64,000 nt of DNA from a virus (lineage: Duplodnaviria > Heunggongvirae > Uroviricota > Caudoviricetes), in IMG/VR virus record IMGVR_UViG_3300037418_003165, positions 1 to 64,000 of that record; one strand, written 5' to 3'. Every line of letters starts with the position of its first letter. Position 1 is the first letter of the stretch. Under the pieces are notes generated by a model. It saw only the letters and a list, made by a program, of their open reading frames with translations. It did no database searches and was not told where the DNA came from. Shown piece by piece: positions 12,201 through 53,728 of this stretch. Position numbers and translations under genes: made by a program.

Positions 12201-12556
12201 AGAATGAAGTCCCGCAAAACGAATCGCGGGACGAGATGGCCGAGCGGGCGCTGCGTTGGTGTCGCGCAAATGACGGCGGCCGCCTCGGGGTCTGGTGGCC
12301 CTGCGGTTCCCATCCGAGGGACCCGGCTGACACGAGCCAACCGATCATGGCTGTGATGTGGGACGGCGGCGGCACTGGTGAACTCGGCGTGTTCTACGAC
12401 AAGGCCGGTGCCGATGACATGGAAACCATCTGCGACATCTTCAATTGGGCCCTCGACCAGCTTGTCCCCAGCGTGCGGGGATACTACGGCGACCGGACAT
12501 ATCTCCTCCCGAAGTCTCCGCCGGCGGCCGCCGAGGCGGAGGAGGACCGCCCGTGA
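12197..12556 (+). CDS. Hypothetical protein.
   Basis: ATGA overlap. MKNEVPQNESRDE... Confidence 0.5.
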   Translation: MKNEVPQNESRDEMAERALRWCRANDGGRLGVWWPCGSHPRDPADTSQPIMAVMWDGGGTGELGVFYDKAGADDMETICDIFNWALDQLVPSVRGYYGDRTYLLPKSPPAAAEAEEDRP

Positions 12557-13257
12557 CGAAACTCCTTCTCGAAGGTATCGCTGGCTCGACAGCCTATGGT
12601 TTGAGCCGCCCGGGCAGCGATCTCGACTACATCGGCATCTACGTCGAACCCACCCGAAACTTTCTCGGACTCCACCCGCCCTCTCGTGAACGCGCCACCC
12701 GGAAAGGCCGCGGGGGAGCAGACGGCACCTTCCACGAGATCGGCAAGTCGATGACCCTCATGCTCGCCTGCAACCCACACGCGCTCGAAATCCTCTGGCT
12801 CGACAACTACACCCACTCAACCGGTTTCGGCTGGGAACTCATCGCCCTGCGAGACTGCTTCCTGTCAGCTCAAAACGTGCGTGACCGATACTTCGAGTAC
12901 GCCCGTGGGCAACTCAAGCGACTGGTCAATTCGGGCCGCTTCGCCGGATCGCTCGAAACGCGACGAGAGAAGCACGCCCGCCACACCATGCGGATCCTCT
13001 GGCAAGGCTACGAGCTATACACCACCGGCACTCTGCCGATCCGCGTACCTGCGCCTGAGCTCCTGTTCGAGTTCGGGCAGCGGGTTGCGCACGACCCAGA
13101 TGCCCGAGCAGCCGAAACGCTGATCGCCGAATACGAAGCGAAGTTCGACGACGCACGCACAGTCCTTCCGGCTGAGCCCACCGAAGCACCACTCGAAGAC
13201 CTTCTGCAGCGCATCCGTCGCGCTCACCTCGAGATCGCGGACGGAGGCCGATCATGA
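12553..13257 (+). CDS. Pol-beta-superfamily nucleotidyltransferase.
   Basis: GSTAYGLSRPGSDLDYIG matches the GS...SDxD nucleotidyltransferase motif. GTGA overlap start. Confidence 0.6.
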   Translation: MTKLLLEGIAGSTAYGLSRPGSDLDYIGIYVEPTRNFLGLHPPSRERATRKGRGGADGTFHEIGKSMTLMLACNPHALEILWLDNYTHSTGFGWELIALRDCFLSAQNVRDRYFEYARGQLKRLVNSGRFAGSLETRREKHARHTMRILWQGYELYTTGTLPIRVPAPELLFEFGQRVAHDPDARAAETLIAEYEAKFDDARTVLPAEPTEAPLEDLLQRIRRAHLEIADGGRS

Positions 13258-15607: not shown

Positions 15608-15771
15608 CCTTCGGGGGCGGAGCCTGGTGCGCTGGCGTGGGTTACTTCCACTGTTAATGGAGAGGTTGCAGGTTCGATTCCTGTCACACCCCCCGTAAGG
15701 ATCGGGTGTGTAGCTCAATTGGCAGAGCGCTATCACCTTCGCCGAATCTTTCTCAGGCCCCGCTCCCGAAA
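15608..15771 (+). ncRNA. Y-RNA-like (YrlA-type) ncRNA candidate 2, with a permuted tRNA-Asn-like domain.
   Basis: Hairpin ttcca-ctGTTaa-tggag. T-arm gcagg-ttcgatt-cctgt (15668-84). 3' acceptor cacaccc (15685-91) pairs perfectly with gggtgtg (15704-10) across a 12-nt loop. D-arm gctc-aattggc-agagc. A 17-bp closing stem forms between 15610-26 (ttcgggggcggagcctg) and 15753-69 (caggccccgctcccgaa). Confidence 0.6.
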
Positions 15772-15812: not shown

Positions 15813-17375
15813 ATGAGCAAGTTCAACGGCAGCGCCGCGCGGGCAGTCGCCGCGGGCCCGATCCAAACCGGTTTCGCCCGCGACGCGAAATCCGAACTCT
15901 TCCTCCTCGCCATCACCAACATGGTCGGGGAGAAGACCTTCTACGAGACCGCGATCGAACGCGATTCCCGATTTGCCGGGCTCGTCCGCACCATCGCCCT
16001 CAACGACCTCGACTGGCTCACTCGCTTCGGGCGCTGGCTGCGCACCGAAGTGAACATGCGCAGCGTGTCTCTCGTGCTCGCCGCAGAAGCCGCCAAAGCC
16101 ACCAACGACGCTGGACAGCACGGTGGCCGCGAACTCGTCAACGCCGTGCTCCAGCGCGCCGACGAACCGGGGGAGATGGTCGCCTACTGGCTGTCGCACT
16201 ACGGGCGCCGACTCCCGAAACCCGTCAAGCGAGGCATAGCCGACGCCGCGGCCCGGCTCTACAACGAACGCTCAACCCTCAAGTGGGACAGCGCCGGCCA
16301 CGGCATCCGCTTCGCCGACGTCATCCAGCTCACCCACCCCGACCCCCAGGCCCTCTGGCAGTCGGAGCTGTTCAAATACCTCGTCGCCCGCCGCTGGGGC
16401 AACGACGTCGAGCCCTCGCCCCGCCTCCAGATGCTGCACGCCAACGCCCACATGCGCACCCACAGCCCCGAGCACATCAAGACGCTGGCGACGAGCGGCC
16501 ACCTGGCGGAACTGCTGCGTCTGGCCGGAATGACCTGGGAAGCGATCCCCGTCCTCGTGCAGGGACCGTGGACTGCCGAACTGTGGTCGGCGGCGATCCC
16601 GACCATGGGTTACATGGCGCTCACGCGCAACCTTCGCAATTTCGACCAGGCCCACGTCAGCGACGATATCGCCGAGCAGGTCGCTGCACGCCTCAGCGAC
16701 CCCCAGCAGGTCGCACGGTCGGGGATGCTGCCAATGCAGTTCCTGTCCGCCTACCGGGCCGCGCCCTCACTGCGCTGGGCGTACCCGCTGGAAAAGGCCC
16801 TCGATCTATCGCTGGCCAACATCCCGCAGCTCCGCGGCCGCACGCTGGTGCTGGTCGACACCTCCTCCTCGATGGATGCCGGCTTCTCCAAGGACGGCAC
16901 CCTCCGGCGCTGGGACGCGGCCGCACTCTTCGGAATCGGCCTCGCCGCCCGCTGCGAGTCAGCCGACCTCGTGTCGTTCTCCAGTACTGCCCAGTACTGG
17001 GGGCAGCCCCACAACGCCCACACCCGCGAATTCACCACCACCGCAGGCGAATCCCTACTCAAAGCCCTCGACCGGTGGAAGCAGGGCGGATGGTTCCTCG
17101 GTGGCGGCACCGCCACCGCGGCCGCGGTGCGGCGCCACTTCAACGCCCACGACCGCGTAGTGATCCTCACCGACGAGCAGGCCCAGCACGACGGCCAGGA
17201 AGTCGGCCAGGCGCTCCCGAAGCAGGTGCCGCTCTACACCTGGAACCTCGCCGGCTACAAGCGCGGCCACGCCGCCGGCGGCCCGAACCGGCACACCTTC
17301 GGAGGCCTCACCGACAAGGCCTTCACGATGATCCCGCTCCTCGAGCGCGGCCGCGACTGCGATTGGCCCTTCTAA
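15813..17375 (+). CDS. rsr: Ro60/Rsr ortholog (TROVE domain plus C-terminal vWA domain).
   Basis: 520 aa. RBS GAAGGGCAGG. MIDAS motif LVLVDTSSSM. The overall TROVE-vWA architecture is typical of Ro60. Confidence 0.75.
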   Translation: MSKFNGSAARAVAAGPIQTGFARDAKSELFLLAITNMVGEKTFYETAIERDSRFAGLVRTIALNDLDWLTRFGRWLRTEVNMRSVSLVLAAEAAKATNDAGQHGGRELVNAVLQRADEPGEMVAYWLSHYGRRLPKPVKRGIADAAARLYNERSTLKWDSAGHGIRFADVIQLTHPDPQALWQSELFKYLVARRWGNDVEPSPRLQMLHANAHMRTHSPEHIKTLATSGHLAELLRLAGMTWEAIPVLVQGPWTAELWSAAIPTMGYMALTRNLRNFDQAHVSDDIAEQVAARLSDPQQVARSGMLPMQFLSAYRAAPSLRWAYPLEKALDLSLANIPQLRGRTLVLVDTSSSMDAGFSKDGTLRRWDAAALFGIGLAARCESADLVSFSSTAQYWGQPHNAHTREFTTTAGESLLKALDRWKQGGWFLGGGTATAAAVRRHFNAHDRVVILTDEQAQHDGQEVGQALPKQVPLYTWNLAGYKRGHAAGGPNRHTFGGLTDKAFTMIPLLERGRDCDWPF

Positions 17376-18553
17376 TGCCGATGACGCAGATCAGCCCCAA
17401 ATTGCTGTCGTGGGCCGTTGAGATCGACGACAACACGATCGAACAGGCGCACCAGACCGCGAGCATGCCGTTCGTGGCCCCGCACGTCGCGCTGATGCCC
17501 GACGCGCACAGTGGGCTCGGCGCCGCGGTGGGAACCGTCATCCCCACCGACGGCGCTGTGATCCCAGCCGCGGTCGGCGTGGACATCGGCTGCGGTATGG
17601 GTGCGATCGAGACTCGCTTCACCGCAGCCGATATCGACGGCCGCGACCTGGGCCAGCTGCGCGCAGCCATCGAGGCCGCGATCCCGCTGAGCCCCGGCTT
17701 CTACAACACCGCCATCACCCGCGACCACACCGCCGAACGGATCGCCGAGCTCGAAGGACTCGCCGCGCGCAACAGCGTCGACCTCACGCATTCTCCGAAG
17801 TGGCGCGAGCAGCTCGGCTCGCTTGGCGGCGGTAACCACTTCATCGAGCTGTGCTTGGACGAACGCCAGCACGTGTGGCTGTTCCTTCACTCCGGAAGCC
17901 GGGGCGTCGGCAACAAGATCGCCCAACGTCACATCAAGATCGCCCAGCAGCTGTGCAAGCGGTGGTGGATCGACCTGCCCAGCCCAGACCTCGCTTACCT
18001 CGTCGAGGGCACACACGAGTTCGCCTTCTACATCAAGGAACTCGCGTGGGCGCAGAAATTCGCCGCGCTCAACCGCGCGGACATGCTCGACCGGTTCGCC
18101 GCCGAATTCGCGCACTGGATCGGCGCCGACGACCACGGCGAAGTCGACCGGATCATCTCCCACCACAACTACACCCGCCGCGAGAAGCACATGGGCCGAG
18201 ACGTCTGGTTGACCCGGAAGGGCGCCGTCGATGCACACGCCGGCGTGCGGTCGATGATTCCAGGCAGCATGGGCACCGCCTCCTACGTCGTGGAAGGCAA
18301 GGGCTGCGTCCCGGCGCTCTGCTCGGCACCGCACGGCGCCGGCCGACGCATGTCGCGCACGGAGGCGAAAAAGCGGTTCACCGCCGACGACCTCTCCGCC
18401 CGCATGCAGGGAATCGAGTACCGGCCGGGCGAGGAATGGGTGGACGAGATCCCGGACGCGTACAAGCCGATCGACGAAGTCATGGCCGCCGCAGAGCCAC
18501 TGGTCACGGTGCTGCACCAATTGCGGCAGGTCATGAACGTCAAGGGAACGTAG
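17375..18553 (+). CDS. rtcB: RtcB RNA 3'-phosphate/5'-OH ligase.
   Basis: ATG overlaps the rsr stop. His/Cys metal-site motifs PDAHSGLG, GCGMG, GNHFIEL, HSGSRG and HHNY are typical of RtcB. Confidence 0.8.
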   Translation: MPMTQISPKLLSWAVEIDDNTIEQAHQTASMPFVAPHVALMPDAHSGLGAAVGTVIPTDGAVIPAAVGVDIGCGMGAIETRFTAADIDGRDLGQLRAAIEAAIPLSPGFYNTAITRDHTAERIAELEGLAARNSVDLTHSPKWREQLGSLGGGNHFIELCLDERQHVWLFLHSGSRGVGNKIAQRHIKIAQQLCKRWWIDLPSPDLAYLVEGTHEFAFYIKELAWAQKFAALNRADMLDRFAAEFAHWIGADDHGEVDRIISHHNYTRREKHMGRDVWLTRKGAVDAHAGVRSMIPGSMGTASYVVEGKGCVPALCSAPHGAGRRMSRTEAKKRFTADDLSARMQGIEYRPGEEWVDEIPDAYKPIDEVMAAAEPLVTVLHQLRQVMNVKGT

Positions 18554-22231: not shown

Positions 22232-23296
22232 GTGAACAACGACAACGCCGGCGCGTTCGACGAGGACAATCCGCCATCCGAGGAACTCGCGACAGCACCG
22301 TCGAGCGAATTCATCGTCTACCGCACTGAAGACGGGCGCGTCGAGGTCCAACTGCGAACGGTCGACAACACCGTCTGGCTGAGCCAGCGGCAGATGGCCG
22401 ACCTGTTCGACAAGGACGTTCGCACCATCAACGACCACCTCAAGCGGATCTACGAAGAGGGGGAGTGTGTGATGGAGGCAACTATCCGTAAATTCCGGAT
22501 AGTTCAATCCGAAGGCGAACGCATGGTCGAACGCGCCGTCGACCACTACAACCTGGACGCCGTGCTGGCGGTCGGATACCGCGTGCGGTCCGCCCGCGGC
22601 ACCCAGTTCCGGCGCTGGGCCAGCACCGTGCTGCGGGAGTACCTCGTCAAGGGCTTCGCCATGAACGACGCACGGCTGAAGGATCCGGTCGGCGCGGACT
22701 ACTTCGACGAACTCCTCGAGCGGATCCGCGACATCCGCGCGTCCGAAAAGCGCTTCTACGAGAAGGTCCGCGATGTGTTCTCGGCATCGAGCGCCGACTA
22801 CGACCCTAAGTCCAAGATCGCGACGACATTCTTCGCCACGATCCAGAACAAGCTGCTGTTCGCGGTGACCGGGCACACGGCCGCCGAGCTCGTGGTGAAG
22901 CGCTGCAACCACGAGCTGCCCAACATGGGCCTCACCAGCTGGAAGGGCGGCGTCGTCCGCAAGGGCGACGTCGGAATCGCGAAGAACTATCTCGATGAGA
23001 AGGAAGTGAAGCAGCTCAACCGCCTCACCACGCGGTTCCTCGACTTCGCCGAGGACCGCGCGGAGCGGCGCCAGCAGATGCTGATGGCCGACTGGGTGGC
23101 CCAGACCGATCGCTTCCTGGAATTCGACGAGCGCGGCATCCTCAAAGGTCCCGGGCGCGTGTCGGCCGACGAAGCGACCCGCGTGTCGTCCGAACGCTAC
23201 GCCCGATTCGACGAGCGCCGGCGCGAGCTGCAGGCGCAGGCCGCGGATGTCGCCGAACTTGAAGCGATCCAGGCGGAAATCGAGGGGCGCGAGTAG
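22232..23296 (+). CDS. RhuM-family protein.
   Basis: YRTEDGRVEVQL...VWLSQRQMADLF...HYNLDAVLAVGYRVRSARGTQFRRWA...YFDELLERIRDIRASEKRFY closely matches RhuM consensus blocks I recall. A long intergenic region lies upstream. Confidence 0.7.
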   Translation: MNNDNAGAFDEDNPPSEELATAPSSEFIVYRTEDGRVEVQLRTVDNTVWLSQRQMADLFDKDVRTINDHLKRIYEEGECVMEATIRKFRIVQSEGERMVERAVDHYNLDAVLAVGYRVRSARGTQFRRWASTVLREYLVKGFAMNDARLKDPVGADYFDELLERIRDIRASEKRFYEKVRDVFSASSADYDPKSKIATTFFATIQNKLLFAVTGHTAAELVVKRCNHELPNMGLTSWKGGVVRKGDVGIAKNYLDEKEVKQLNRLTTRFLDFAEDRAERRQQMLMADWVAQTDRFLEFDERGILKGPGRVSADEATRVSSERYARFDERRRELQAQAADVAELEAIQAEIEGRE

Positions 23297-25632: not shown

Positions 25633-26018
25633 CCTCCGATGACATCCTGTCTCGTCTGTCTGCTGGCCTGGACCGGGACGAGCAACTCGCCCGAGCGATC
25701 GACGACAAGCAGTTCGACAGCGGGTGGAGCATCATCTCCTATCCAGGTGCCGCCGGGAAGACGATCAGCCCGCATATCGGTCACGTCCACGAGGTCGAGG
25801 CGGCAGAGCACATCGTGCGCCAAGACCCGGCCCGCACCCTGCGGCGGGTGGAGGCGATCCGGAAGGTGATCGAACGCTATGAGTTCGTCACCAGTCACGG
25901 CCCGGCGGTCGACAACACTCGGGCGATGGACATGACCACAGGCGCTACGGCCGCGCTGCGGGACGTGCTGGAGATGCTGGCCTCCATCTACTCCGATCCC
26001 GCCGGGGAGGGTGAGTGA
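25629..26018 (+). CDS. Hypothetical protein (tandem paralog B).
   Basis: GTGA overlap. DPARTLRRVEAIRKVIERYE...LASIYSD. Confidence 0.5.
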   Translation: MTSDDILSRLSAGLDRDEQLARAIDDKQFDSGWSIISYPGAAGKTISPHIGHVHEVEAAEHIVRQDPARTLRRVEAIRKVIERYEFVTSHGPAVDNTRAMDMTTGATAALRDVLEMLASIYSDPAGEGE

Positions 26019-26230
26019 GCATCGACGACATCGGCGTGACCGCCCAACAGCTCCGTGAGATGGCCGACGCGGTCGCCGCCCGCTACCCCGCCGCGGTACT
26101 GGTGAAGAACCAGGTCGGCAACCTCTCAGTGGTGAATGCGGGCGAGTATCTGGGGTTTCTGGACCTGCGGTTCGGTGGCGTGACGTTCTTCGAGGACAAC
26201 GATTCCGCCGAGACGGGAGGGGAATCGTGA
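26015..26230 (+). CDS. Small hypothetical protein.
   Basis: GTGA overlap. Confidence 0.4.
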   Translation: MSIDDIGVTAQQLREMADAVAARYPAAVLVKNQVGNLSVVNAGEYLGFLDLRFGGVTFFEDNDSAETGGES

Positions 26231-26451
26231 GCGATCGTAAGCCCTACGAGACGTCCATCTCGCTGGAGGGCGCCCTCATCGGTTGGACAGACCGCGACGG
26301 CCAACTCCATGTGGAGCGCTGCCGGGGTGAGTGGCCCTGCCGGATCAGGTTGGTATCTGAACCCGATCTACCGCGCGCCTTGCGAAAACTCTCCGCCATT
26401 GAGGACATGGTGCGGGAGATCACCGGCGGGACAGGAGAACCGACGCCGTGA
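26227..26451 (+). CDS. Small hypothetical protein.
   Basis: GTGA overlap. Confidence 0.4.
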   Translation: MSDRKPYETSISLEGALIGWTDRDGQLHVERCRGEWPCRIRLVSEPDLPRALRKLSAIEDMVREITGGTGEPTP

Positions 26452-26738
26452 GCGCCTGGGAGCACTGGTCCAAGGCCGAGGCTCACATGGCCGAGTATCA
26501 ATTCCGCGACGCCGCCGAGCTCGCGGACGAACTGCTTGAGGCGGGCTACATCCTCGCCGCCGACCGCGACACGGTCGCGACGGAGATCGGCGTCCACGAC
26601 GCCGTCTACGTATTTGAGGACGACGCCCCGCATTGCAAGTGCGGGAAGTGGCTGGAGGACAACGAGTACGAGTGGCCGGACCATGTGGGTGATGTGCTCG
26701 ACAAGTGGATCACCGAAGCGGGGAGGGGGGACCGATGA
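26448..26738 (+). CDS. Small hypothetical protein.
   Basis: GTGA overlap. Confidence 0.4.
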   Translation: MSAWEHWSKAEAHMAEYQFRDAAELADELLEAGYILAADRDTVATEIGVHDAVYVFEDDAPHCKCGKWLEDNEYEWPDHVGDVLDKWITEAGRGDR

Positions 26739-26992
26739 GCGACTGGCGCGGAGGCTTCTACGCTGCCGTTGCCGCGTGGCTCCGCGACCGTGAACCCGCC
26801 CTCGATATCGCGCGCGTCGTGGGCGTGGACGAGAGTATCGACATCAATCCCGGCTACTCGGTGGCCGACGACACGGTCGAGGTGAACCTTGAGGTCCGGT
26901 ACATGACGTCGGAGGGTGTGGAGCAGACGCATTCGCGGCTGGGCGGCCTCGGCGAAGTCATCCGGGAGATCACCGCGGGAGCGGAGTCGTGA
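26735..26992 (+). CDS. Small hypothetical protein.
   Basis: ATGA overlap. Confidence 0.4.
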   Translation: MSDWRGGFYAAVAAWLRDREPALDIARVVGVDESIDINPGYSVADDTVEVNLEVRYMTSEGVEQTHSRLGGLGEVIREITAGAES

Positions 26993-27201
26993 GCAAGCTG
27001 TTGTGTCAGAACTGCAAGGGCGAGATGCGTTGGAACCCAAACGCCCCGGCGTACCGGTGTAGCGATCCTGGCTGTCGGTGTGAGACGGCGCAGGGATGCT
27101 ATGAGCATGTCGGCGAGGATTGCACGCTGTTCCTGTGGCTGCTCCAGGTACCTGACGACGCCGAGGCGGGAGCGCCCAAGGTGGCGGCGGGAGAGTCGTG
27201 A
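26989..27201 (+). CDS. Small zinc-ribbon protein.
   Basis: GTGA overlap. CQNCKG...CSDPGCRC. Confidence 0.4.
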   Translation: MSKLLCQNCKGEMRWNPNAPAYRCSDPGCRCETAQGCYEHVGEDCTLFLWLLQVPDDAEAGAPKVAAGES

Positions 27202-27239
27202 GCGACGAAATCGCGGACAGGCGCCGATAGGATCGCGGC

Positions 27240-27419
27240 ATGGCGTTACAGGTTGGATCGCGGGTCAAGCTCATCGAGGGCGGGGTGTCGGTGTTCCGCA
27301 TCGTGGAGATGGAGGCCGACGGTGATCCCACTCATGTGGTCGTGGAACCAGTTGAGGATGCGCCGGGCGGGTACCCATTCCCGACACCGATCCAGCACCT
27401 GGTGCTCGTCGACGAGTAA
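27240..27419 (+). CDS. Small hypothetical protein (59 aa), absent from the ORF track because it is below 60 aa.
   Basis: ATG 27240 to TAA 27417-27419. MALQVGSRVKLIEGGVSVFRIVEMEADGDPTHVVVEPVEDAPGGYPFPTPIQHLVLVDE. GC3-biased. Confidence 0.4.
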   Translation: MALQVGSRVKLIEGGVSVFRIVEMEADGDPTHVVVEPVEDAPGGYPFPTPIQHLVLVDE

Positions 27420-27481
27420 CTTGGTATCGGTTCGGATGGATGTTCCGGCCTCAGATCGCCATGACGACAGAGGAGCATCCA

Positions 27482-27727
27482 ATGCAGAACATCACGATCG
27501 GCCGATACCGGGCCAACGAGGCCACCGCCGTGCGCATCCGATGCGATGCCGGCGGGAATGAACTTGGTCGCGAAGATTTCCAGGCCCACGCTGGGTGGAT
27601 CGAAGGCGTACGCGACGACGGCAGTCGCTGGATCATGTACACGGACGCCGCCGGCTCCCCGCAGATCTTTTGGCCGCACCGAGGCGACGACGGCGCCGTG
27701 CGCGGCGTCCCGGTCGAACTGGATTGA
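27482..27727 (+). CDS. Hypothetical protein.
   Basis: GAGGAG sits 9 nt upstream of ATG 27482. In frame with listed ORF 27440..27727. Confidence 0.45.
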   Translation: MQNITIGRYRANEATAVRIRCDAGGNELGREDFQAHAGWIEGVRDDGSRWIMYTDAAGSPQIFWPHRGDDGAVRGVPVELD

Positions 27728-27795
27728 GCACAGAAACGAAATGGCCGCCCCGGCAACCGGGGCGGCCATTCTGCGTACTGGGGGACCGTCTCGCC

Positions 27796-28035
27796 CTACT
27801 GGGGGGTGGTCGGCGCGGTCGTGCCGCCGGACGCGCTGCCGCTCGTCAACGCTCGGACCACGGCGTTACCCAGGTTCGCGCTACCGCTCGTGGCGGGGTC
27901 GGGGGTTGTCGTGCCGTCGACGGCGACAGCGGCTGGCGCGGGCTCGAGAGGAATGCCGGCCTGGGCGACAGTGGCGCTGGCCCCGATCACGGCAACAGCG
28001 GAGAAAGCGATAGCGGCAAAACGGGTGATGCTCAC
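27796..28035 (-). CDS. Small secreted Ala/Thr-rich protein with a signal peptide.
   Basis: GTG start with a GGAGA RBS. N-terminus SITRFAAIAFSAVAVIGASATVAQA. Confidence 0.5.
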   Translation of the reverse strand: MSITRFAAIAFSAVAVIGASATVAQAGIPLEPAPAAVAVDGTTTPDPATSGSANLGNAVVRALTSGSASGGTTAPTTPQ

Positions 28036-28152
28036 AAATTCTCCTAGCTCGATTTGTTGTGATGACGTCCTTGCATCGTTCACAGCATGAAAAACGTTAC
28101 TACCAGCGGATTTGCGGGATTCGCTCTGAAAGACTCGCTGTCGCAGGTGGTC

Positions 28153-28434
28153 TCACGCCTCTGCTGGCGGCGTGCCGCCGCGTTGGAACACATCTCGCAG
28201 ACCGGCGTCCAGATCCAGACGACCGCGGAGGTCCTCGATGAAGTCCGCGTGTTTCGCGGCCAGCCACGCATCGATCTCCGCCGTTTCCTCGGTCAGCTCG
28301 GCGCTTGCCGCGGGATCAGCTTGCACACGTTCGAACATCTGCTGGAATTCCGTCCACAGGCGTTCCGTCGTCTTCGGGGCGACAGGTCGGAGCAGCATGC
28401 GCGCGATCTCGTCCTTGTCCTCCTGAAACGTCAT
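28153..28434 (-). CDS. Hypothetical protein.
   Basis: 93 aa. Its ATG sits 6 nt after the stop of the upstream minus-strand gene. Confidence 0.5.
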   Translation of the reverse strand: MTFQEDKDEIARMLLRPVAPKTTERLWTEFQQMFERVQADPAASAELTEETAEIDAWLAAKHADFIEDLRGRLDLDAGLRDVFQRGGTPPAEA

Positions 28435-28439
28435 GCTGA

Positions 28440-28694
28440 TCAGGCCTTGTCCTCGGGAAAGAGATGGGAGTAGTGCGTACGGATGGTGCTTCCGAGGCCG
28501 CCGCCCGGCATGTCGGTGACTTCCAGAACGATGAGGGGCTCGGCGCGGTCACGGAAGTAGAAGACGTCCCTCACGATGAAGTCGCCCTCCGGCAGGACGA
28601 TCGTCTCCGCGCGGCGCGGGAGTGGCCACTCGCCGGGCCAGTCGATGTCGAACGATTGTCCGTAATGGTTTATGTCGTGGATGCGGAGCTTCAC
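28440..28694 (-). CDS. Hypothetical protein.
   Basis: GTG start with a GAAGGG RBS. VKLRIHDINHYGQSFDIDW... Confidence 0.45.
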   Translation of the reverse strand: MKLRIHDINHYGQSFDIDWPGEWPLPRRAETIVLPEGDFIVRDVFYFRDRAEPLIVLEVTDMPGGGLGSTIRTHYSHLFPEDKA

Positions 28695-28906
28695 GATTCG
28701 ATAGCCCTTCCGGGACGGTTGGCAGTCAGTGACGATTTCTCGCGGTGGAGCAGGTCTCGAATGTAGGGGGGCAGCCCGTGGGGGAGACGCCATTGTCTCC
28801 CCGCTCGGATGCTTGCGGGTTGGATCCGCGGACTGCTCGGGTGGATATCGGTGACCGGTCGTGTCCCGGCCCGGAGTCGAACCGGGCCGCGCACCATGCG
28901 GGACGA

Positions 28907-29209
28907 TCAGGCTTCGCGCGCCTCTTCGGCGTCGTCGAGCGATGCGCCGAGCGCGTTGATCGCGGCGCGGAAGTGGGGGTGCCGCGAGGAGTGCTTGTCG
29001 GGGCGTTCGAGGAAGTAGACGATCTCGCCGATGCTCTGCGAGCGGAGCCGGCCGAGGTATTCACCGTCGCGGTCGCGGGTGATGCGCTGCCACCCGTCCT
29101 CGTCGTAGCGGTCGAGCAGGATCGTTTCGGCGATGTAGGGCCCGCGGTGGCGCAGCATGGCCGCGCGGACCGGGTAGAGGTCGGTCGTACCGGCTTCGAT
29201 ATCAGACAT
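28907..29209 (-). CDS. Hypothetical protein.
   Basis: CAGGAGAA RBS 5 nt upstream of the ATG. Confidence 0.55.
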   Translation of the reverse strand: MSDIEAGTTDLYPVRAAMLRHRGPYIAETILLDRYDEDGWQRITRDRDGEYLGRLRSQSIGEIVYFLERPDKHSSRHPHFRAAINALGASLDDAEEAREA

Positions 29210-29235
29210 CGGGTTCTCCTGAGAGGGAATGGGTT

Positions 29236-29481
29236 TCAGACTGCGACGGGGGCGGTGACGGTGACGTCCTGCCAGTTGCCGTGGCGGGTCGAGGCCCGGA
29301 TGATCTCGCCGTCGGCGTTCAGGCGGAGCAACAGCACCACTTCCTGCCCGCGGTCGTTGCGCGTCCGGGCGAGCGACGCGAACTCGTACTCGGGGCCTTC
29401 GGTGATCGTGTAGCGGCGGCCGCCGTAGTGGATGACCTGGCCGACGTAGTGGTCCGCGGGCTTGAGATCCGGCTTCGTCAT
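29236..29481 (-). CDS. Hypothetical protein. First gene of the minus-strand operon.
   Basis: GAAGGAGG RBS, then ATG (MTKPDLK...). Confidence 0.55.
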   Translation of the reverse strand: MTKPDLKPADHYVGQVIHYGGRRYTITEGPEYEFASLARTRNDRGQEVVLLLRLNADGEIIRASTRHGNWQDVTVTAPVAV

Positions 29482-29498
29482 GTGCGCCTCCTTCATCG

Positions 29499-29580
29499 GG
29501 TGTACGTACACCTTAGCGTTGGGTGTACGTACACCGCAAGCTTGATAGGCTACCAATTTGTACGTACACCCCAGCGGCCG
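29499..29580. promoter_or_regulatory. Three copies of palindromic operator GGTGTACGTACACC in the divergent intergenic region.
   Basis: Copies at 29499-29512 and 29522-29535 are exact. The copy at 29567-29580 (tTTGTACGTACACC) deviates in its left flank. Confidence 0.7.
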
Positions 29581-29591
29581 AAGGAACACTC

Positions 29592-29789
29592 ATGCCGGAC
29601 CAACCCAAAACGCAGCACCGCTCGGTGCGCGTGCCGGATGACGATTGGATAGACCTCGAAACAGCTTCCGCCAGTGCGGGTTCCGACCGCGCCAAAGTGA
29701 TCAACTTGTTGATTCGCTGGTATTTGCGGCGGCCCGGCGCGAAGCTTCCGCCGCGTCCGCCAGCGGGCAATCGTGAAGGCGGCGGGTGA
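29592..29789 (+). CDS. Ribbon-helix-helix (Arc/CopG-like) DNA-binding protein, the likely operator-binding regulator.
   Basis: N-terminal RSVRVPDDDWIDLE beta-strand followed by helices. GAAGGA RBS. Confidence 0.6.
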   Translation: MPDQPKTQHRSVRVPDDDWIDLETASASAGSDRAKVINLLIRWYLRRPGAKLPPRPPAGNREGGG

Positions 29790-30277
29790 CGGCCGTGCGC
29801 GCCGCTCATGCCAAGCCGCGAGGGAGGCCATGTGCCCACCGGCGCTATCGGCTGACCTGTGAGGAATACGAGCAACTTCGACGGTGGTCTGGCGATTGCT
29901 GCCAACTGTGCGGAATCGCGCCGCAGGACACGTCTCATGGCTTCTTATCGATCGACCACGACGATCGGTGGGGCAGTTGGGCCGTCCGCGGGCTGCTGTG
30001 CTGCTCGTGCAATACCTGGACCGTTCCGTGTGATGGACAATCGCCCGAGGTGCGCCGATACCTCCGGAATGCGTGGTACTTGAAGATGCTGGCGGAAAGG
30101 GGGCTCGCGGTTGCGGTCCCGCCCGAGCCGCGCGAGGGCGCGACGGTCGTATGGGGCAGAAGGCGTTGGACCCGGAGGCGAGCCAGCTGGATCGCTCACG
30201 ACAGGTTGGCCGGCGGCCGGACAACCTGGGCCGGTCTGTACCGGCGATATGGCCCCTGCGAATTGGAGATTCTGTGA
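29786..30277 (+). CDS. Endonuclease VII-like / HNH-family nuclease.
   Basis: CQLCG...IDHDDRWGSWAVRGLLCCSCN fits the Endonuclease_7 motif pattern. Confidence 0.6.
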   Translation: MTAVRAAHAKPRGRPCAHRRYRLTCEEYEQLRRWSGDCCQLCGIAPQDTSHGFLSIDHDDRWGSWAVRGLLCCSCNTWTVPCDGQSPEVRRYLRNAWYLKMLAERGLAVAVPPEPREGATVVWGRRRWTRRRASWIAHDRLAGGRTTWAGLYRRYGPCELEIL

Positions 30278-30528
30278 TGACGGATAACGCCTATGCAGCC
30301 GAGCGTGTGCAGGTTCGGTGCGTACTGGTCTTCGGCAGTGGGCCGGATGCGCGAGCGGAGCTGGAGACGCCGTGGCATCCGGTGCGGGACCCGATGGCGG
30401 TGCGCGCCGGTGATATCGCCGACCAGGCCGGCCTTCCGGTGGGGGAGTTGCCGGGGCGGCGGTTCTGGGCGGTGGGCAACGCCGAGGGTTTGAGTGGGTT
30501 TGAACTGGTGGACGATCCGCGAAAATAG
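30277..30528 (+). CDS. Hypothetical protein.
   Basis: ATGA overlap. Confidence 0.45.
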   Translation: MTDNAYAAERVQVRCVLVFGSGPDARAELETPWHPVRDPMAVRAGDIADQAGLPVGELPGRRFWAVGNAEGLSGFELVDDPRK

Positions 30529-30529
30529 A

Positions 30530-30618
30530 TGTTGCAAAACATGTGCCGTGTGTTGTAAAGTATGAAGTGTCGGAAGGGGGTCGGACCCCGACCGGCAGCA
30601 GTTTGACAACACAACAAT
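30530..30618 (+). promoter_or_regulatory. Repeated promoter-leader element, copy A.
   Basis: -35 TTGCAA, 18-nt spacer, -10 TAAAGT, then a GC-rich structured leader. About 89 bp, identical to copy B except in the spacer. Confidence 0.5.
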
Positions 30619-30633
30619 GAAAGGAAGCTCACG

Positions 30634-31014
30634 ATGAGCGAACGTTGGGACATGTTCAGCGCCGGACTCATTACGAATCTGGCGGGAATCGTGAAAGTCC
30701 TTGGGATGCTCCCCATTCCGATCGAAGTCAAGATCGAACCAGGTGGCGGAGACGAGATCGCGGACCTGGTCCGAGCTCAGAAGCTCCTCCAGGAAATCCC
30801 GATGCACGACATCCTGCGGGCCGCCTGCAACACGGCGATCCTGGACTGGATGACCGGCGTCACCCTCGGCTCGTTCGCTGACAGGCTCAGCGAGGATGAC
30901 GAGGATTGGGACTGGATGGTCGCCAGCGGCATCATCCAGATGCACCGGTGCCGAGACGAAATCGAGCTGGCGCTCGGAATTCTCTCCGGCAAGGTGGAGA
31001 TCGAGGAGGAGTGA
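30634..31014 (+). CDS. Hypothetical protein (paralog of 31698..32066).
   Basis: AAAGGAAG RBS. Similarity blocks with 31698..32066 (LPIPIEVKIEPGG vs PPIALPVFEPG). Confidence 0.55.
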   Translation: MSERWDMFSAGLITNLAGIVKVLGMLPIPIEVKIEPGGGDEIADLVRAQKLLQEIPMHDILRAACNTAILDWMTGVTLGSFADRLSEDDEDWDWMVASGIIQMHRCRDEIELALGILSGKVEIEEE

Positions 31015-31171: not shown

Positions 31172-31582
31172 ATGGTAGCGCGATCGAAGAACGAAACGCC
31201 AGGGCGCGTCATCGCGCCGGAAATTGCTGAGCGGTACGGCCGCGAGCTTTCGACCGTTCAGCGGCAGTGGATGGCCAGCAGCGTGTGGCCTGCAGCGGTC
31301 GGCAAACGTGGTCGCTGGAACGTGTTCGACGCCGACGCGGTCGATCGCATCGTGCGCGAGCACTTCATTCGCCCCACCGCGACAGCCGGCCGTCCGGACG
31401 ACCTCCTGACAGTGGCCGAAATTGCCGAGTACACGGGGCTGAGCGCATCGACGATCCGCTCGGACATCTCGCGCGGGCGTATCCAGCGCGACCCAGACGA
31501 CGAGTCCGACGGGGTGAAGCGGTGGAGGCGCGCGACGATCGATGCGGCGATGGCCGGACGTCAGCGGTACAGGCACCGCTGA
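31172..31582 (+). CDS. Helix-turn-helix DNA-binding protein (excisionase/MerR-like).
   Basis: LLTVAEIAEYTGLSASTIRSDISRG. AAAGGAGG RBS. Confidence 0.55.
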   Translation: MVARSKNETPGRVIAPEIAERYGRELSTVQRQWMASSVWPAAVGKRGRWNVFDADAVDRIVREHFIRPTATAGRPDDLLTVAEIAEYTGLSASTIRSDISRGRIQRDPDDESDGVKRWRRATIDAAMAGRQRYRHR

Positions 31583-31600: not shown

Positions 31601-31688
31601 TGTTGCAAAACATGTCTCCAATGTTGTAAAGTATGAAGTGTCGGAAGGGGGTCGGACCCCGACCGGCAGCAGTTTGACAACACAACAA
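31601..31688 (+). promoter_or_regulatory. Repeated promoter-leader element, copy B.
   Basis: Identical to copy A except for the 8-nt -35/-10 spacer. Confidence 0.5.
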
Positions 31689-31697
31689 AGGAGCATC

Positions 31698-32066
31698 ATG
31701 AACCATGATGAGAGGCGCCGCGAGATCGGCAAGCGCATCACCTACGGGTGGGTGCTGATGTGCAAGATCTTCGCTTTGCTCACCCCGCCGATCGCCCTTC
31801 CGGTATTCGAGCCGGGCAACCTGCCCCAGCTCGAGGAGGCCGCGGTTCGGGCCCGGGCCCTGGTCAAGGACCTTCCGCTGGACGCGGAAACCACCGGCCT
31901 GCTCGACCTGGGGCTACTCGAATGGCTCACAGCGGTCGCGCTGTGCAAGTTCGAGTCCTACGGGCCGTACGAGCATCTGCTGGACGCGGCGACGCACTCG
32001 CTGATCCGGCACTCGCTGATCATGCAGGACGTGGGCGAGAAGTTCGATTGGTTCCCCGAGAGCTGA
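31698..32066 (+). CDS. Hypothetical protein (paralog of 30634..31014).
   Basis: AAGGAG RBS. Confidence 0.5.
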   Translation: MNHDERRREIGKRITYGWVLMCKIFALLTPPIALPVFEPGNLPQLEEAAVRARALVKDLPLDAETTGLLDLGLLEWLTAVALCKFESYGPYEHLLDAATHSLIRHSLIMQDVGEKFDWFPES

Positions 32067-46908: not shown

Positions 46909-48555
46909 GTGGCGGTACTCATCGTCCCGCCCCTCGACCTGACCTACCCGACCCTCGGACCCGACCTCGCGGACTTCATCGAGGAACGGTTCACGTTCGG
47001 GCCAGGATCGCTGGCGGGAGAGCCGGCGGTCCTCGACGACGAGAAGCGCGCCGCGCTGTACCGGCTGTACGAGGTGTACCCGCAGGGGCACCCGCTGGCC
47101 GGGCGGCGCCGCTTCAACCAGGGCGCCATCGAGTGGCGTAAGGGCCTGGCCAAGACGGAGTTCGCGGCGTGGGTGTGCGGCCTCGAGCTGCACCCGGAGG
47201 CGCCGGTTCGCTGCGACGGCTTCAACGCCGCGGGCGAACCGGTCGGCCGGCCGGTGAAATTCCCGTACATCCCGATGATGGCGGTCACCGAGGAACAGGT
47301 GAGCGAGCTCGCCTATGGCGTGCTCTGCTACGTCCTCGAGCACAGCCCCGACGCCGACCTGTTCGACATCGGCGCAGACCGGATCATCCGGCTCGGCCGC
47401 AACGGCGCGCCGGACGGCCGCGCGGTGCCGGTATCGAACGCCCCGGGCAGCCGCGACGGTGCGCTGACCACCTTCCAGCACTTCGACGAGCCGCACCGGC
47501 TGTACCTGCCGTCGCAGGTCGGCGCGCACGAAACGATGATGCAGAACCTGTCGAAGCGGGCGCTGGAAGATCCGTGGAGCTTCTACACCAGCACCGCGGG
47601 CAAGCCTGGACAGAAGAGCATCCAGGAGAGCCTTCGTCGCGGCGCCGAACGCATCGAACGTGGTGAGGTCGAGAAGCCGAAGATGTTCTTCTTCGGCCGC
47701 TGGGCTGGACCCGCACACGACGATCTCAGCACCGTCGAGAAGCGCATCGCAGCGATCGCGGAGGCCACCGGCCCGGCCGGTGAATACGGCCCTGGGCAGT
47801 TCCAGTCCATCGCCGAGGACTACGACCGCGAAGGCTGCGACCGGGCCTACTGGGAGCGCGTCTACCTCAACCGGTGGCGCGCCGGCGGAAACCAGGCCTT
47901 CAACATCACCAAGATCGTCGCCAACCTCGTTCGGCCCGCCGGGACCGTCATCCCGGCGGGCGCGTTCGTCGCCGGCGGCTTCGACGGCGCACGGATGCGG
48001 GACTCGACCGGTCTGGTGCTCACCGATATCCAGACCGGCCTGCAGCAGTGCGTGGCTCACTGGCAGCGGCCCGAGGGCGTCGAGGAGTGGGAGGTCGACG
48101 AGGCCGAGGTGACTGCGGCCTTCGAAGACGCCATGGACCGCTACGAGGTGTGGAAGATCTACGCCGATCCGCCGCACTGGACTGCGACGCTCGGTGATTT
48201 CTCGGTGCGATGGCCGGAGCGGATCGAGGAATGGTGGACCCACCGGCAGAAGCCGATGGCCTATGCGCTGCGCGAGTACATCGAGGGCCAGGACGCCGGC
48301 CTCGTTTCCTACGGCGGCACCGAGAAGCAGCTCGACGTCATGATCGACCACCTCGGCAACGCCGAACGCAAGGAACTGCGGATGTACGACGACCAGGGAT
48401 TTCCGCTGTACATCCTGCAGAAACCCGATGGCCGGCAGGACTGCAAGATCGACCTCTCCGTCTGCGGAGTCCTGTCCTGGAAAGCAACCCTCGACGCCCG
48501 CAAATCGGGCGCGAAACCCCGCCCGAAAGCCCGCGCCCCCCGGCGCCTGTATTGA
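46909..48555 (+). CDS. Terminase large subunit.
   Basis: 548 aa. The N-terminal ATPase region is followed by a nuclease half. Position before the portal gene. Confidence 0.75.
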   Translation: MAVLIVPPLDLTYPTLGPDLADFIEERFTFGPGSLAGEPAVLDDEKRAALYRLYEVYPQGHPLAGRRRFNQGAIEWRKGLAKTEFAAWVCGLELHPEAPVRCDGFNAAGEPVGRPVKFPYIPMMAVTEEQVSELAYGVLCYVLEHSPDADLFDIGADRIIRLGRNGAPDGRAVPVSNAPGSRDGALTTFQHFDEPHRLYLPSQVGAHETMMQNLSKRALEDPWSFYTSTAGKPGQKSIQESLRRGAERIERGEVEKPKMFFFGRWAGPAHDDLSTVEKRIAAIAEATGPAGEYGPGQFQSIAEDYDREGCDRAYWERVYLNRWRAGGNQAFNITKIVANLVRPAGTVIPAGAFVAGGFDGARMRDSTGLVLTDIQTGLQQCVAHWQRPEGVEEWEVDEAEVTAAFEDAMDRYEVWKIYADPPHWTATLGDFSVRWPERIEEWWTHRQKPMAYALREYIEGQDAGLVSYGGTEKQLDVMIDHLGNAERKELRMYDDQGFPLYILQKPDGRQDCKIDLSVCGVLSWKATLDARKSGAKPRPKARAPRRLY

Positions 48556-53416: not shown

Positions 53417-53728
53417 GTGGAAGACGTCTACATCGAGGACAAGTTCTTCCAGCTGTACGAGAAGGGCCCGGAGTGCCGAGCCATGATCTGGCTGTCGCTG
53501 GAGCTGTACGAGGCGCTGTATCGGGAGGTCGTCGCGAAACGCACCGGCCGCCTCGCCGCCTCGACCCGCATCTTCACCGAACTCGAGCAGGGCCGGTGGA
53601 TGGGCACGCTGGCGGTCACCGCGCCCTACGCGGCAAGCCATGAATTCGGCACCGACGACGGCGATGAGCGGATCATCGCTGGCCACCACGACCTGAACAA
53701 GGTTCTCAACATCATGGCGCGCGTATGA
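53417..53728 (+). CDS. Tail completion / head-tail protein.
   Basis: Gene order. GTG start just after the upstream stop. Confidence 0.5.
   Translation: MEDVYIEDKFFQLYEKGPECRAMIWLSLELYEALYREVVAKRTGRLAASTRIFTELEQGRWMGTLAVTAPYAASHEFGTDDGDERIIAGHHDLNKVLNIMARV

Follow-up and report, generated by a model that had tools for sequence, protein, structure and literature searches.

The five small minus-strand genes analysed here (g1-g5) appear to form a leftward unit of accessory genes that is repressible by an Arc-like regulator and belongs to a compact bidirectional switch, a reading to which we give somewhat better than even chances. The operators of the switch and the adjoining Arc-like gene were observed together at many other loci, in which the leftward genes are different, and the slot occupied by g1-g5 is variable cargo. 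All positions refer to the window, the whole stretch of 64,000 nucleotides that was analysed.

A leftward cassette closed by a terminator

All five minus-strand ORFs that the sequence-only reading had placed in this island were found, without mutual overlap and in the leftward order g5, g4, g3, g2, g1 (Table 1). Identical five products are present in an independent public gene call on a Logan contig (L001) that is 100% identical to window positions 25668-30580, and this contig is also the only copy of g1-g5 beyond the present record. Spacers of 26 nt and 5 nt separate g5 from g4 and g3 from g2, respectively, and gaps of 212 nt and 117 nt precede g3 and g1. Since g2 starts only 5 nt after the stop codon of g3, the two genes are probably translationally coupled. 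The bracketing of the island was as had been described: a genuine divergent region is located at 29482-29591, and convergent plus-strand genes face the island at its opposite end. The statement that the genome is otherwise unidirectional was nearly right: among the 85 genes called by the codon-model caller, only g2-g5 and one additional gene, located between the tail terminator and major tail protein genes, are on the minus strand.

Table 1 Features of the island, its switch and the further minus-strand gene (coordinates of g1-g5 include the stop codon).
Feature	Coordinates	Strand	Details
Intrinsic terminator closing the leftward unit	27739-27771	minus	15-bp stem, 11 G-C pairs, then CGTTTCTG
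g1	27796-28035	minus	79 aa; GTG start; RBS AGGAG 5 nt 5' of GTG
g2	28153-28434	minus	93 aa; start 5 nt past g3 stop
g3	28440-28694	minus	84 aa; GTG start; weaker RBS GGAAGGG
Second hairpin of the g4-g3 gap	28781-28802	minus	GGGGAGAC-AAUGGC-GUCUCCCC
tRNA-like minihelix	28858-28905	minus	48 nt; begins 2 nt past g4 stop
g4	28907-29209	minus	100 aa; RBS AGGAG
g5	29236-29481	minus	81 aa; RBS AAGGAGG 6 nt 5' of ATG
Operator O1	29499-29512		GGTGTACGTACACC; over the putative start site of the leftward promoter
Putative leftward promoter P_L	29510-29539	minus	-35 TTGCGG 29539-29534; 18-nt spacer; -10 TAAGGT 29515-29510
Operator O2	29522-29535		GGTGTACGTACACC; in the spacer of the putative leftward promoter
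Operator O3	29558-29571		TTGTACGTACACCC; one mismatch in 12-bp core
Arc-like regulator gene	29592-29789	plus	65 aa; first rightward gene
Additional minus-strand gene	54290-54667	minus	between tail terminator and major tail protein

Coding capacity was assessed with a model of codon usage derived from 11 long window genes, for which in-frame training windows scored 0.57 +/- 0.12 bits/codon and the off-frame 95th percentile was 0.01. The scores of g2-g5, 0.37-0.65 bits/codon (0.64 for g4, 0.41 for g3, 0.37 for g2), are within the range of bona fide genes and thus far beyond those of chance ORFs, and every antisense or overlapping alternative frame at the island scored 0.08 bits/codon or less. 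A 99-nt upstream extension of the g3 ORF scored -0.86. GC-rich DNA yields many long spurious ORFs (81 ORFs were listed in 6.5 kb) and g1 scores near zero, as would be seen if some or all of the island ORFs were chance open frames, but the scores of g2-g5, the absence of overlap, the RBSs, the identical call by an independent pipeline, and the real homologs and confident predicted fold of g5 make that explanation extremely improbable. The score of g1, 0.04 bits/codon, is the top of its six frames yet weak, so that its coding status rests on its RBS, its GC3 trend and the independent gene call; this status appears weak, and the least secure of the five.

The leftward unit ends in an intrinsic terminator that forms a perfect 14-nt inverted repeat where the convergent genes meet. 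A generic promoter scan recognised no internal promoter ahead of g3 or of g1, and the 212-nt gap contains a structured tRNA-like element (see below); the genes may form one operon or two. Alternatively, g1 alone might be a classical moron, transcribed from a separate promoter within the AT-richer 117-nt gap and served by its own terminator, and its expression would then not depend on that of g5-g2, as for instance in a prophage. The separate gap, the good RBS, the strong terminator directly downstream and a codon usage unlike the rest of the genome would suit such a gene, but the gap is unstructured and contains no convincing -35/-10 pair, either by the scan or by eye, and the atypical codon usage is not specific to g1, since the Arc-like and endonuclease VII genes are atypical as well. 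We consider an independent g1 unit rather unlikely.

Operators, a putative promoter and an Arc-like gene in the divergent region

The divergent region of 110 bp contains three copies of the palindrome GGTGTACGTACACC, of which O3 is imperfect, and within the 64-kb window the three copies are confined to this region. O1 and O2 are associated with the putative leftward promoter P_L, and O3 lies between a -10-like sequence, TGATAGGCT (29543-29551), and the Arc-like gene, an arrangement that suggests a relation to a rightward promoter. The match of P_L to the consensus is only moderate, and the generic promoter scan did not pick it up. The elements of P_L are conserved: 27 of 29 switch regions retain a -35-like TTG(C/T)(G/C) next to O2, and in 28 of 29 a -10-like element between O2 and O1 begins with TA (positions 1-2), with TAnnGT in about 20.

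The Arc-like gene shares 4 nt with the endonuclease VII gene that follows it (29786-30277). Its product matched phrog_6506, annotated 'Arc-like repressor', with E = 1.2e-6 (8e-7 when trimmed), as did 21 of 27 homologs. Matches to Pfam RHH_1 were obtained for 4 of the 27 family members at a best E of 0.008, below the cut-off, PDB profile matches were weak (CopG, E = 0.34; ParG, E = 0.82), and alignment to Arc and CopG sequences with hhalign was not significant. The conserved blocks HRSVRI, DDDWxDL and DRxxVIxxLxxWYL fit by eye the ribbon-helix-helix (RHH) pattern, in which a beta-strand at the N-terminus precedes two helices. The protein is probably a ribbon-helix-helix protein, an assignment that rests on one PHROG profile.

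To place the switch in context, IMG/VR was searched with a pattern of two operators, which returned 30 loci. An Arc-like homolog with 33-73% protein identity adjoins the operators at a fixed distance in 28 of them, and across loci the operators are located at about -87, -64 and -29 from the start codon of the Arc-like gene. Judged from these comparisons, it is the Arc-like protein, and not the product of any island gene, whose occurrence goes along with that of the operators. The leftward genes beside the switch in the relatives (82 ORFs in 68 clusters) included none like g1-g5; the leftward cargo elsewhere includes DUF6011/SWIM and WYL genes, followed in several loci by terminases. The genes g1-g5 are absent from the 28 switch-sharing loci, and also from 11 loci that share the upstream gene. 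The operator and Arc-like module was not represented in the cultured-phage collection searched, and the literature held nothing relevant on the operator sequence or on RHH regulators in actinobacteriophages.

In all 28 relatives, the leftward promoter feeds the main gene direction and the Arc-like gene is the lone opposite-strand gene. Because it drives the main gene direction there, P_L would be one of the major regulated promoters rather than a promoter private to a moron. The polarity of the relatives is thus reversed; the regulator there rather resembles a repressor of a prophage or of late genes, and the timing proposed below may not transfer.

The preferred reading can be laid out as follows. 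A sigma-A-type P_L would fire leftward through all five genes, from g5 to g1, and stop at the terminator. This promoter would carry two of the 14-bp palindromic operators, one in its spacer and one over its start, and the third would sit on the rightward promoter. The Arc-like protein would be the cognate operator binder and, once accumulated, would shut P_L and damp its own promoter, so that the cassette would be expressed whenever little or no regulator is present, in the simplest case during the first minutes of infection. The products would be non-essential accessory proteins gained piecemeal, four cytoplasmic orphans and one exported Thr/Pro-rich peptide, and would act on the host, with no part in virion assembly or replication.

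A divergent promoter pair with three operators also recalls lambda O_R, and the same region could be read as a lysogeny or immunity cassette in which an island protein, most likely g5, is the prophage repressor acting on O1-O3, P_L is the equivalent of lambda P_RM and the Arc-like protein that of Cro. An excisionase/MerR-like gene is located nearby (31172-31582), and a plasmid-type replication initiator (2252-3661) could support non-integrative lysogeny. However, the near-invariant operators of the 28 loci are paired with unrelated leftward genes and always with an Arc-like gene, which is not the behaviour of a CI-type repressor, and no DNA-binding family, domain or fold was found in g1-g5. 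Neither an integrase nor a partition gene was found among the roughly 50 proteins scanned in the 64-kb window (26 kb of the 90.5-kb source contig lies outside it), so that a lysogen in which a moron could act is not established. We regard a prophage repressor encoded in the island as very unlikely.

The proposed Arc-repressible unit accommodates part of the earlier suggestion that the island is a moron, immunity or superinfection-exclusion cassette. The island is indeed a leftward set of small genes without recognizable domains, and g1-g5 show the variable presence among related phages that is typical of morons; they also have a terminator, but the promoter appears to be the shared and conserved promoter of the switch, which drives core genes in the relatives, and not one of their own. 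Nothing points to immunity or superinfection exclusion, and g1-g5 match no DNA-binding or defence family.

Orphan proteins and a tRNA-like minihelix

Domain, family and PDB sequence searches agreed with the view that the island products lack recognizable domains. No match to g1-g5 was obtained in Pfam, PHROGs, NCBIfam, PADLOC, PDB sequences, cultured phages or plasmids: PADLOC, Pfam and NCBIfam gave no relevant match at E up to 0.1-1, PDB sequence searches gave nothing meaningful, and tblastn against cultured phages and against plasmids returned zero matches. In near and distant nucleotide searches against cultured phages, a neighbouring plus-strand gene was the sole match, and IMG/VR scans with g5, g4, g3 and g2 found no relatives. 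Among 5.8 billion proteins, g4 and g3 each matched only themselves, g4 being without a family match and g3 without a family or PDB match, and g2 is a singleton 90% cluster with no family, PDB, IMG/VR, phage or plasmid match. The g4 protein is acidic (pI 5.3), and its single-sequence AF2 model (pLDDT 62) was unusable and was left out of the fold search. Short DNA repeats had prompted the idea that g3 and g4 are paralogs, which was rejected because BLASTP shows no similarity between them.

Five distant relatives were found for g5, all in unrelated contexts. Its confidently predicted fold is a small all-beta, generic SH3/Tudor/KOW-like barrel. One homolog (P0006) is likewise promoter-proximal, in an early-looking operon with a DUF6011 gene. 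The g1 protein starts with MSITRF-AAIAFSAVAVIGASATV-AQA/G (the slash marking the cleavage site) and has a single hydrophobic segment, with a Kyte-Doolittle maximum of 2.05 over residues 6-24; of the 53-aa tail behind the cleavage site, 72% is Ala, Thr, Pro, Gly or Ser. With a positive n-region, a hydrophobic h-region, an AxA cleavage motif and no lipobox Cys, it has the features of a Sec signal and is predicted to be a secreted protein with a signal peptide, which fits the earlier description of a secreted Ala/Thr-rich peptide.

These properties could also be arranged as two toxin-antitoxin or abortive-infection-like pairs (g5-g4 and g3-g2) with an exported exclusion peptide, that is, a defence unit benefiting a lysogen. 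The genes are indeed paired at spacings of 26 nt and 5 nt and encode 80-100 aa each, g2 is very acidic (pI 4.5, net charge -9) like many antitoxins and DNA mimics, and g1 carries a predicted signal peptide. No partner from a known toxin, antitoxin or defence family was found among g1-g5 in PADLOC, Pfam, NCBIfam or PDB sequences, and we judge the arrangement improbable.

The most unusual item of the island is a tRNA-like minihelix in the gap between g4 and g3. An acceptor-like stem, GUCCCG/CGGGAC, is stacked on a T-arm, GCCCGG-UUCGACU-CCGGGC, and an 11-nt linker takes the place of the D and anticodon arms. The gap contains a second hairpin (Table 1), and the folding stability of its 212 nt as a whole is unremarkable (z = -0.98). 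Over its 48 nt, the minihelix is 100% identical to an intergenic element that is repeated in Nocardia sp. NPDC049220, with at least five copies within 8 kb; a tblastx comparison of the Nocardia locus with the window gave noise only. More copies were found in L037, L053 and L050, with the compensatory stem-1 variants GCCCCG/CGGGGC and UCCCCG/CGGGGA, and other genomes likewise have the element behind stop codons. The identity with a Nocardia genome hints at the host and at an RNA-level mechanism.

Having an acceptor-like stem and a T-arm only, the minihelix was not called a tRNA by ARAGORN or by Rfam (RF00005). Neither the minihelix nor a YrlA RNA (RF02553) was among the Rfam matches at 27600-29800 up to E = 10, and the Ro-binding motif GNCGAAN0-1G was not seen in the minihelix by eye. 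Elsewhere in the window there is a Ro60-like gene with a partial YrlA-like match upstream of it, at 15661-15731. The minihelix was also considered as an attP relic, the 3' end of a tRNA; this was dropped, since the 5' strand of the acceptor stem persists 11 nt upstream, copies in other genomes also follow stop codons, and no integrase was found.

Within the proposed leftward unit, the minihelix would probably be a point of RNA processing or attenuation that uncouples the two halves of the transcript. A broader and rather doubtful idea is that phages of mycolic-acid actinobacteria carry, in such minihelices, an undescribed class of intercistronic tRNA mimics, which recruit tRNA-processing enzymes to cut or mark polycistronic mRNAs. 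If so, minihelices after stop codons would recruit RNase P, RNase Z, the CCA-adding enzyme or TruB, the one described here would split the island transcript into g5-g4 and g3-g2-g1 with different fates, and the elements would be a bacterial-virus counterpart to organellar tRNA punctuation and t-elements. Bacterial and mycobacteriophage Y RNAs (YrlA/YrlB; PMC4201824) and plant mitochondrial t-elements (PMC1920247) likewise carry, outside a real tRNA, an acceptor-like stem on which a T-arm with a canonical T-loop is stacked. YrlA of M. smegmatis is cleaved by RNase P and receives CCA (PMC4201824), and t-elements set mRNA ends in plant mitochondria (PMC1920247). In contrast to both, the island minihelix is only 48 nt long, is without a D arm, and is intercistronic.

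Comparison with known phage switches and cassettes

The island is a real but fairly ordinary phage accessory cassette. Genes 82-94 of Gordonia phage YungMoney are likewise small, mostly hypothetical leftward genes that form an orphan-rich mosaic cargo, and this block comes after a gene homologous to the last plus-strand gene ahead of the island (27440-27727). The two blocks share no sequence similarity, and that of YungMoney is located at the genome end, without the Arc-like and operator module. The value of the island itself is modest, as it adds one more to the many known orphan-rich actinobacteriophage cassettes and a functional lead is absent for four of its five proteins.

In the immI region of Salmonella phage P22, arc-ant and mnt are served by overlapping divergent promoters and operators. 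A tiny Arc-type regulator is, as here, the first gene at one of two back-to-back promoters, palindromic operators lie over both promoters, and negative autoregulation would be expected. P22 has distinct Arc and Mnt operators, whereas in the present region a single 14-bp palindrome occurs three times, neither an antirepressor nor a Mnt homolog is encoded, five orphan genes lie leftward, and the host belongs to the high-GC actinobacteria; similarity to Arc itself is undetectable. The lambda O_R region, with P_RM and P_R and three operators, likewise combines three spaced operators common to divergent promoters with a small regulator as the first rightward gene; here, however, no CI-like repressor is encoded leftward, and the leftward cargo of the relatives is unrelated or structural.

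What is new here, as far as sequence comparison indicates, is the three-operator divergent region with its conserved putative leftward promoter and Arc-like gene. The Arc-like gene and the three GGTGTACGTACACC operators make up a portable module, observed in at least 29 uncultured or prophage genomes of high-GC actinobacteria. The module is combined with different cargo in either polarity, and it could serve as a repressible promoter in high-GC actinobacterial hosts.

Gene layout, coding evidence and genome setting

The island contained five small minus-strand genes without overlap, named g5 to g1 in leftward order and separated by 26, 212, 5 and 117 nt. All five genes that the sequence-only reading had described were present, and an independent pipeline gave the identical five products on a public copy. 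The good ribosome-binding sites it had assigned to them were found for g5, g4 and g1, but the site of g3 was weaker, and g2 was probably translationally coupled to g3. In a codon-usage model trained on 11 long genes of the window (true genes, 0.57 +/- 0.12 bits/codon; 95th percentile of wrong frames, 0.01), g2-g5 scored 0.37-0.65 bits/codon, and every alternative ORF overlapping the island scored 0.08 or less. An artefact is excluded for g2-g5. With a score of just 0.04 bits/codon, g1 is the least certain of the five. The Arc-like and endonuclease VII genes to the right, which are real by homology, likewise scored poorly, so low codon scores in this region may mark recently acquired DNA.

Features of the window and of the compared contigs
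Feature	Position	Strand	Remark
endolysin	~1.4-2.3 kb		lysis
replication-initiator-like gene	2252-3661	+	phrog_3171, E = 2e-47; directly after lysis genes
RlaP-family gene	12445-13257		near Ro60-like/RtcB
sequence before Ro60-like gene	15613-15731		
Ro60-like gene	15813-17375		
RtcB ligase	17375-18553		after Ro60-like gene
RhuM	22232-23296		
last gene upstream of island	27440-27727	+	
terminator	27771-27739	-	15-bp stem, T-rich tail; closes island
g1	28035-27796	-	79 aa, strong Shine-Dalgarno
g2	28434-28153	-	93 aa
g3	28694-28440	-	84 aa, weaker Shine-Dalgarno
minihelix	28858-28905	-	48 nt
g4	29209-28907	-	100 aa, strong Shine-Dalgarno
g5	29481-29236	-	81 aa, strong Shine-Dalgarno
O1	29499-29512		
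putative leftward -10	29515-29510	-	TAAGGT
O2	29522-29535		
putative leftward -35	29539-29534	-	TTGCGG
O3	29558-29571		one core mismatch
Arc-like gene	29592-29789	+	65 aa
endonuclease VII gene	29786-30277	+	
88-nt repeat, copy 1	30530-30617	+	just upstream of gene 30634-31014
88-nt repeat, copy 2	31601-31688	+	just upstream of gene 31698-32066
terminase	46909-48555		then portal, major tail protein
tail terminator	53725-54279		
further minus-strand ORF	54290-54667	-	125 aa, 0.47 bits/codon
major tail protein	54905-55567		
tape measure	56423-61711		
minihelix copies, contig L036	1-34, 2252-2306, 5681-5734, 6003-6057, 6361-6414		
minihelix copy, contig L037	2048-2100		
minihelix copy, contig L053	4278-4328		
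minihelix copy, contig L050	1310-1357		
divergent region, contig L054	1462-1577		before g5 homolog

The window (G+C ~66%) reads as a siphovirus-type actinobacteriophage genome in permuted order, whose large terminase shares no more than 63% identity with Mycobacterium abscessus prophage counterparts. A run of small plus-strand genes lies upstream of the island, the last of them facing the island terminator with its 3' end; past the island follow the Arc-like gene, endonuclease VII, an excisionase/MerR-like gene, methyltransferases and glycosyltransferases. The caller built on the codon model gave 85 genes, and its minus strand comprised g2-g5 and one further gene, flanked by those for the tail terminator and the major tail protein, whose product had no match in Pfam or PHROG. 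The genome, previously described as otherwise unidirectional, is thus almost but not strictly so. No integrase or partition gene was found within the 64-kb window, and, given this and the initiator-like protein, the phage might be maintained like a plasmid or be strictly lytic. The island region had no nucleotide match among cultured phages; identical (100%) DNA is contained in a Logan assembly, and the proteins of the same DNA are on record from a 90.5-kb JGI contig.

Elsewhere in the window, an RNA-repair style module (Ro60-like, RtcB and a nearby RlaP-family gene) is similar to Ro/Y RNA modules described for mycobacteriophages (PMC4201824); the sequence before its Ro60-like gene was called tRNA-Asn by ARAGORN and gave a partial YrlA Y RNA match in Rfam (36 bits, below threshold).

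The divergent control region and its relatives

The divergent regulatory region noted earlier was borne out: g5 and the first rightward gene are separated by 110 bp, with three copies of the palindrome GGTGTACGTACACC (operators O1-O3) that occurred nowhere else in the window. A pattern search of IMG/VR that required the 12-bp core twice within 35 nt returned 30 loci, and 28 of these (L003-L032 minus L004 and L012, both without the gene) encoded a homolog of the 65-aa rightward protein, starting 81-121 nt after O1 and always at 66-72% G+C. The 28 carriers of the Arc-like gene and three operators were uncultured or prophage contigs of high-GC actinobacteria, and no match to the Arc-like protein came from a translated search of the cultured-phage collection. 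The protein matched phrog_6506 'Arc-like repressor', as did 21 of 27 homologs (33-73% identical in an alignment of 27 sequences). Given this match, and weak matches or none to Pfam RHH_1, to PDB profiles (CopG, ParG) and with hhalign, we call it a probable ribbon-helix-helix protein; it is the likely binder of the operators because its pairing with them is constant.

The three operators recurred in all 29 aligned switch regions, their starts 21-25 and ~34-36 nt apart. On the minus strand, a -35-like TTG(C/T)(G/C) abutted O2 in 27 of the 29, and a -10-like hexamer starting with TA lay between O2 and O1 in 28 (TAnnGT in ~20). The leftward promoter of the window would accordingly combine TTGCGG, an 18-nt spacer holding O2, and TAAGGT; O1 would cover the expected start site, with the g5 ribosome-binding site ~15 nt further on. 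On the rightward side, the transcript of most relatives would be leaderless, as a TAnnnT hexamer precedes the start codon by 6-7 nt and O3 falls in the spacer. A leader with a ribosome-binding site was found instead in the window and in its closest relatives, and the window has an extended -10-like motif, TGATAGGCT, just upstream of O3 as part of a candidate rightward promoter.

Two neighbouring features were also observed. The endonuclease VII gene (Pfam E = 3.6e-10; poor codon fit, -0.40 bits/codon) was absent from the public gene calls for the identical contig, and in L031, one of the switch loci, its homolog lay across the switch, on the other side than in the window. Further right, an 88-nt direct repeat (94% identity) carried a near-consensus promoter-like TTGCAA-18 nt-TAAAGT and a short GGUCGG/CCGACC hairpin; a public 4.9-kb contig breaks at its first copy.

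The leftward cargo was varied. The 28 relatives had 82 ORFs in 68 clusters on the left of the switch, none of them resembling g1-g5 even at E = 1. The first leftward gene encoded a DUF6011 protein (common to four loci, with a C-terminal CxC...CxH motif, SWIM-like by eye), a WYL protein or something unknown, and in several loci small and large terminase-like ORFs, judged by eye from translations, lay within 1.5-4 kb leftward. In all relatives whose contigs extended far enough, no more than two co-directional genes came after the Arc-like gene before leftward genes set in; there it is the Arc-like gene that forms the 'island' on the opposite strand, and the leftward promoter serves the genome's main gene direction. 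The polarity of the window is inverse: the Arc-like gene heads a long rightward run, and the leftward promoter serves five orphan genes and a terminator. The regulator of the relatives has the look of a main-operon repressor, so the Arc-like/operator module may work in different programmes from one genome to another. Loci with a homolog of the last upstream gene carried neither island nor switch, and in Gordonia phage YungMoney this homolog precedes a different leftward block. These absences, and the unrelated cargo at switch loci, indicate a mosaic joint at either end of the island.

It is unlikely that the island is an immunity cassette encoding its own repressor: the operators are constant across loci whose leftward genes differ, and neither a DNA-binding domain in the island products nor an integrase in the window was found. 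On balance we lean towards the island being an Arc-repressible leftward unit of a bidirectional switch. Such a unit would be transcribed while the Arc-like regulator is absent or scarce and would then be shut off by it, and its products would be dispensable accessory proteins acting on the host, one of them exported. Both the immediate-early timing and the accessory role are what we infer, and the reversed polarity of the relatives calls for caution here.

Island products and the tRNA-like minihelix

The absence of recognizable domains held at permissive thresholds for all five products in Pfam, PHROGs, NCBIfam and PADLOC. Comparison of g2-g5 with PDB sequences gave nothing meaningful, translated searches of cultured phages (g1-g5) and plasmids (g2-g5) were empty, and scans of IMG/VR with g5, g4, g3 and g2 found no relatives. 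Among 5.8 billion proteins g4 and g3 matched only themselves; g2, strongly acidic (pI 4.5), is a singleton cluster, and g4 modelled alone gave a poor fold. An exhaustive HMMER search (1.84 billion representatives) returned, besides spurious repeat proteins, five genuine small homologs of g5 (36-51% identity in alignment) that share the motif GRRYTITEGPE...NxRGxE...DGxI...W.DV. They lay on other high-GC contigs among small hypothetical genes, with neither the other island genes nor the operators. In one of these contigs, L054, the g5 homolog is again the first gene past a divergent promoter and shares its operon with a DUF6011 gene. The divergent region there differs, with palindrome ACCCCTAGGGGT and -10-like motif TGGTATGAT, and faces a 73-aa, HTH-like gene.

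The secreted Ala/Thr-rich peptide of the sequence-only reading corresponds to g1, in which a typical predicted signal peptide is joined to a tail of 53 residues, 72% of them Ala/Thr/Pro/Gly/Ser; it is possible that g1 is an independent moron. Toxin-antitoxin or defence pairs are a possible reading of the gene layout, with homology support absent.

In the g4-g3 gap, two nt past the g4 stop codon, a tRNA-like minihelix begins, which reads GUCCCG-CAUGGUGCGCG-GCCCGG-UUCGACU-CCGGGC-CGGGAC-A on the minus strand. It has a 6-bp acceptor-like stem on which a canonical T-arm (G53, UUCGANU loop, C61) is stacked, with an 11-nt linker in place of the D and anticodon arms; neither ARAGORN nor Rfam called it as a tRNA. 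Its 22-nt core matched a single genome in GTDB (one genome per species), Nocardia sp. NPDC049220, which has a 48-nt stretch 100% identical to the minihelix and at least five copies, all on the same strand, in an 8-kb segment with small genes and two tRNA genes; three of the copies begin directly after a stop codon. This identity hints at Nocardia as the host group. One further copy lay between a stop codon and the ribosome-binding site of a signal-peptide gene on a soil metagenome contig, and IMG/VR held more divergent ones.

Stem 1 was fully paired in three versions (GUCCCG/CGGGAC, GCCCCG/CGGGGC, UCCCCG/CGGGGA), each improbable by chance at its position (0.013-0.039 vs random 6-mers), and one decayed copy kept pairing through G-U. 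Other copies had lost the 5' strand, which makes the compensatory support partial. An attP or tRNA-end relic is countered by the retained 5' strand. M. smegmatis YrlA is cleaved by RNase P and receives CCA (PMC4201824), and by likeness to YrlA and to plant mitochondrial t-elements (PMC1920247) we suggest that the minihelix may be an RNA processing or marking signal.

Comparison with known systems

In outline the window switch is like P22 immI and lambda O_R, membership in either not being demonstrable, and its cargo is new. The island is an orphan-rich, opposite-strand accessory block of a kind commonplace in actinobacteriophages. The main interest lies in the conserved Arc-like/operator module and the minihelix rather than in the five island proteins.
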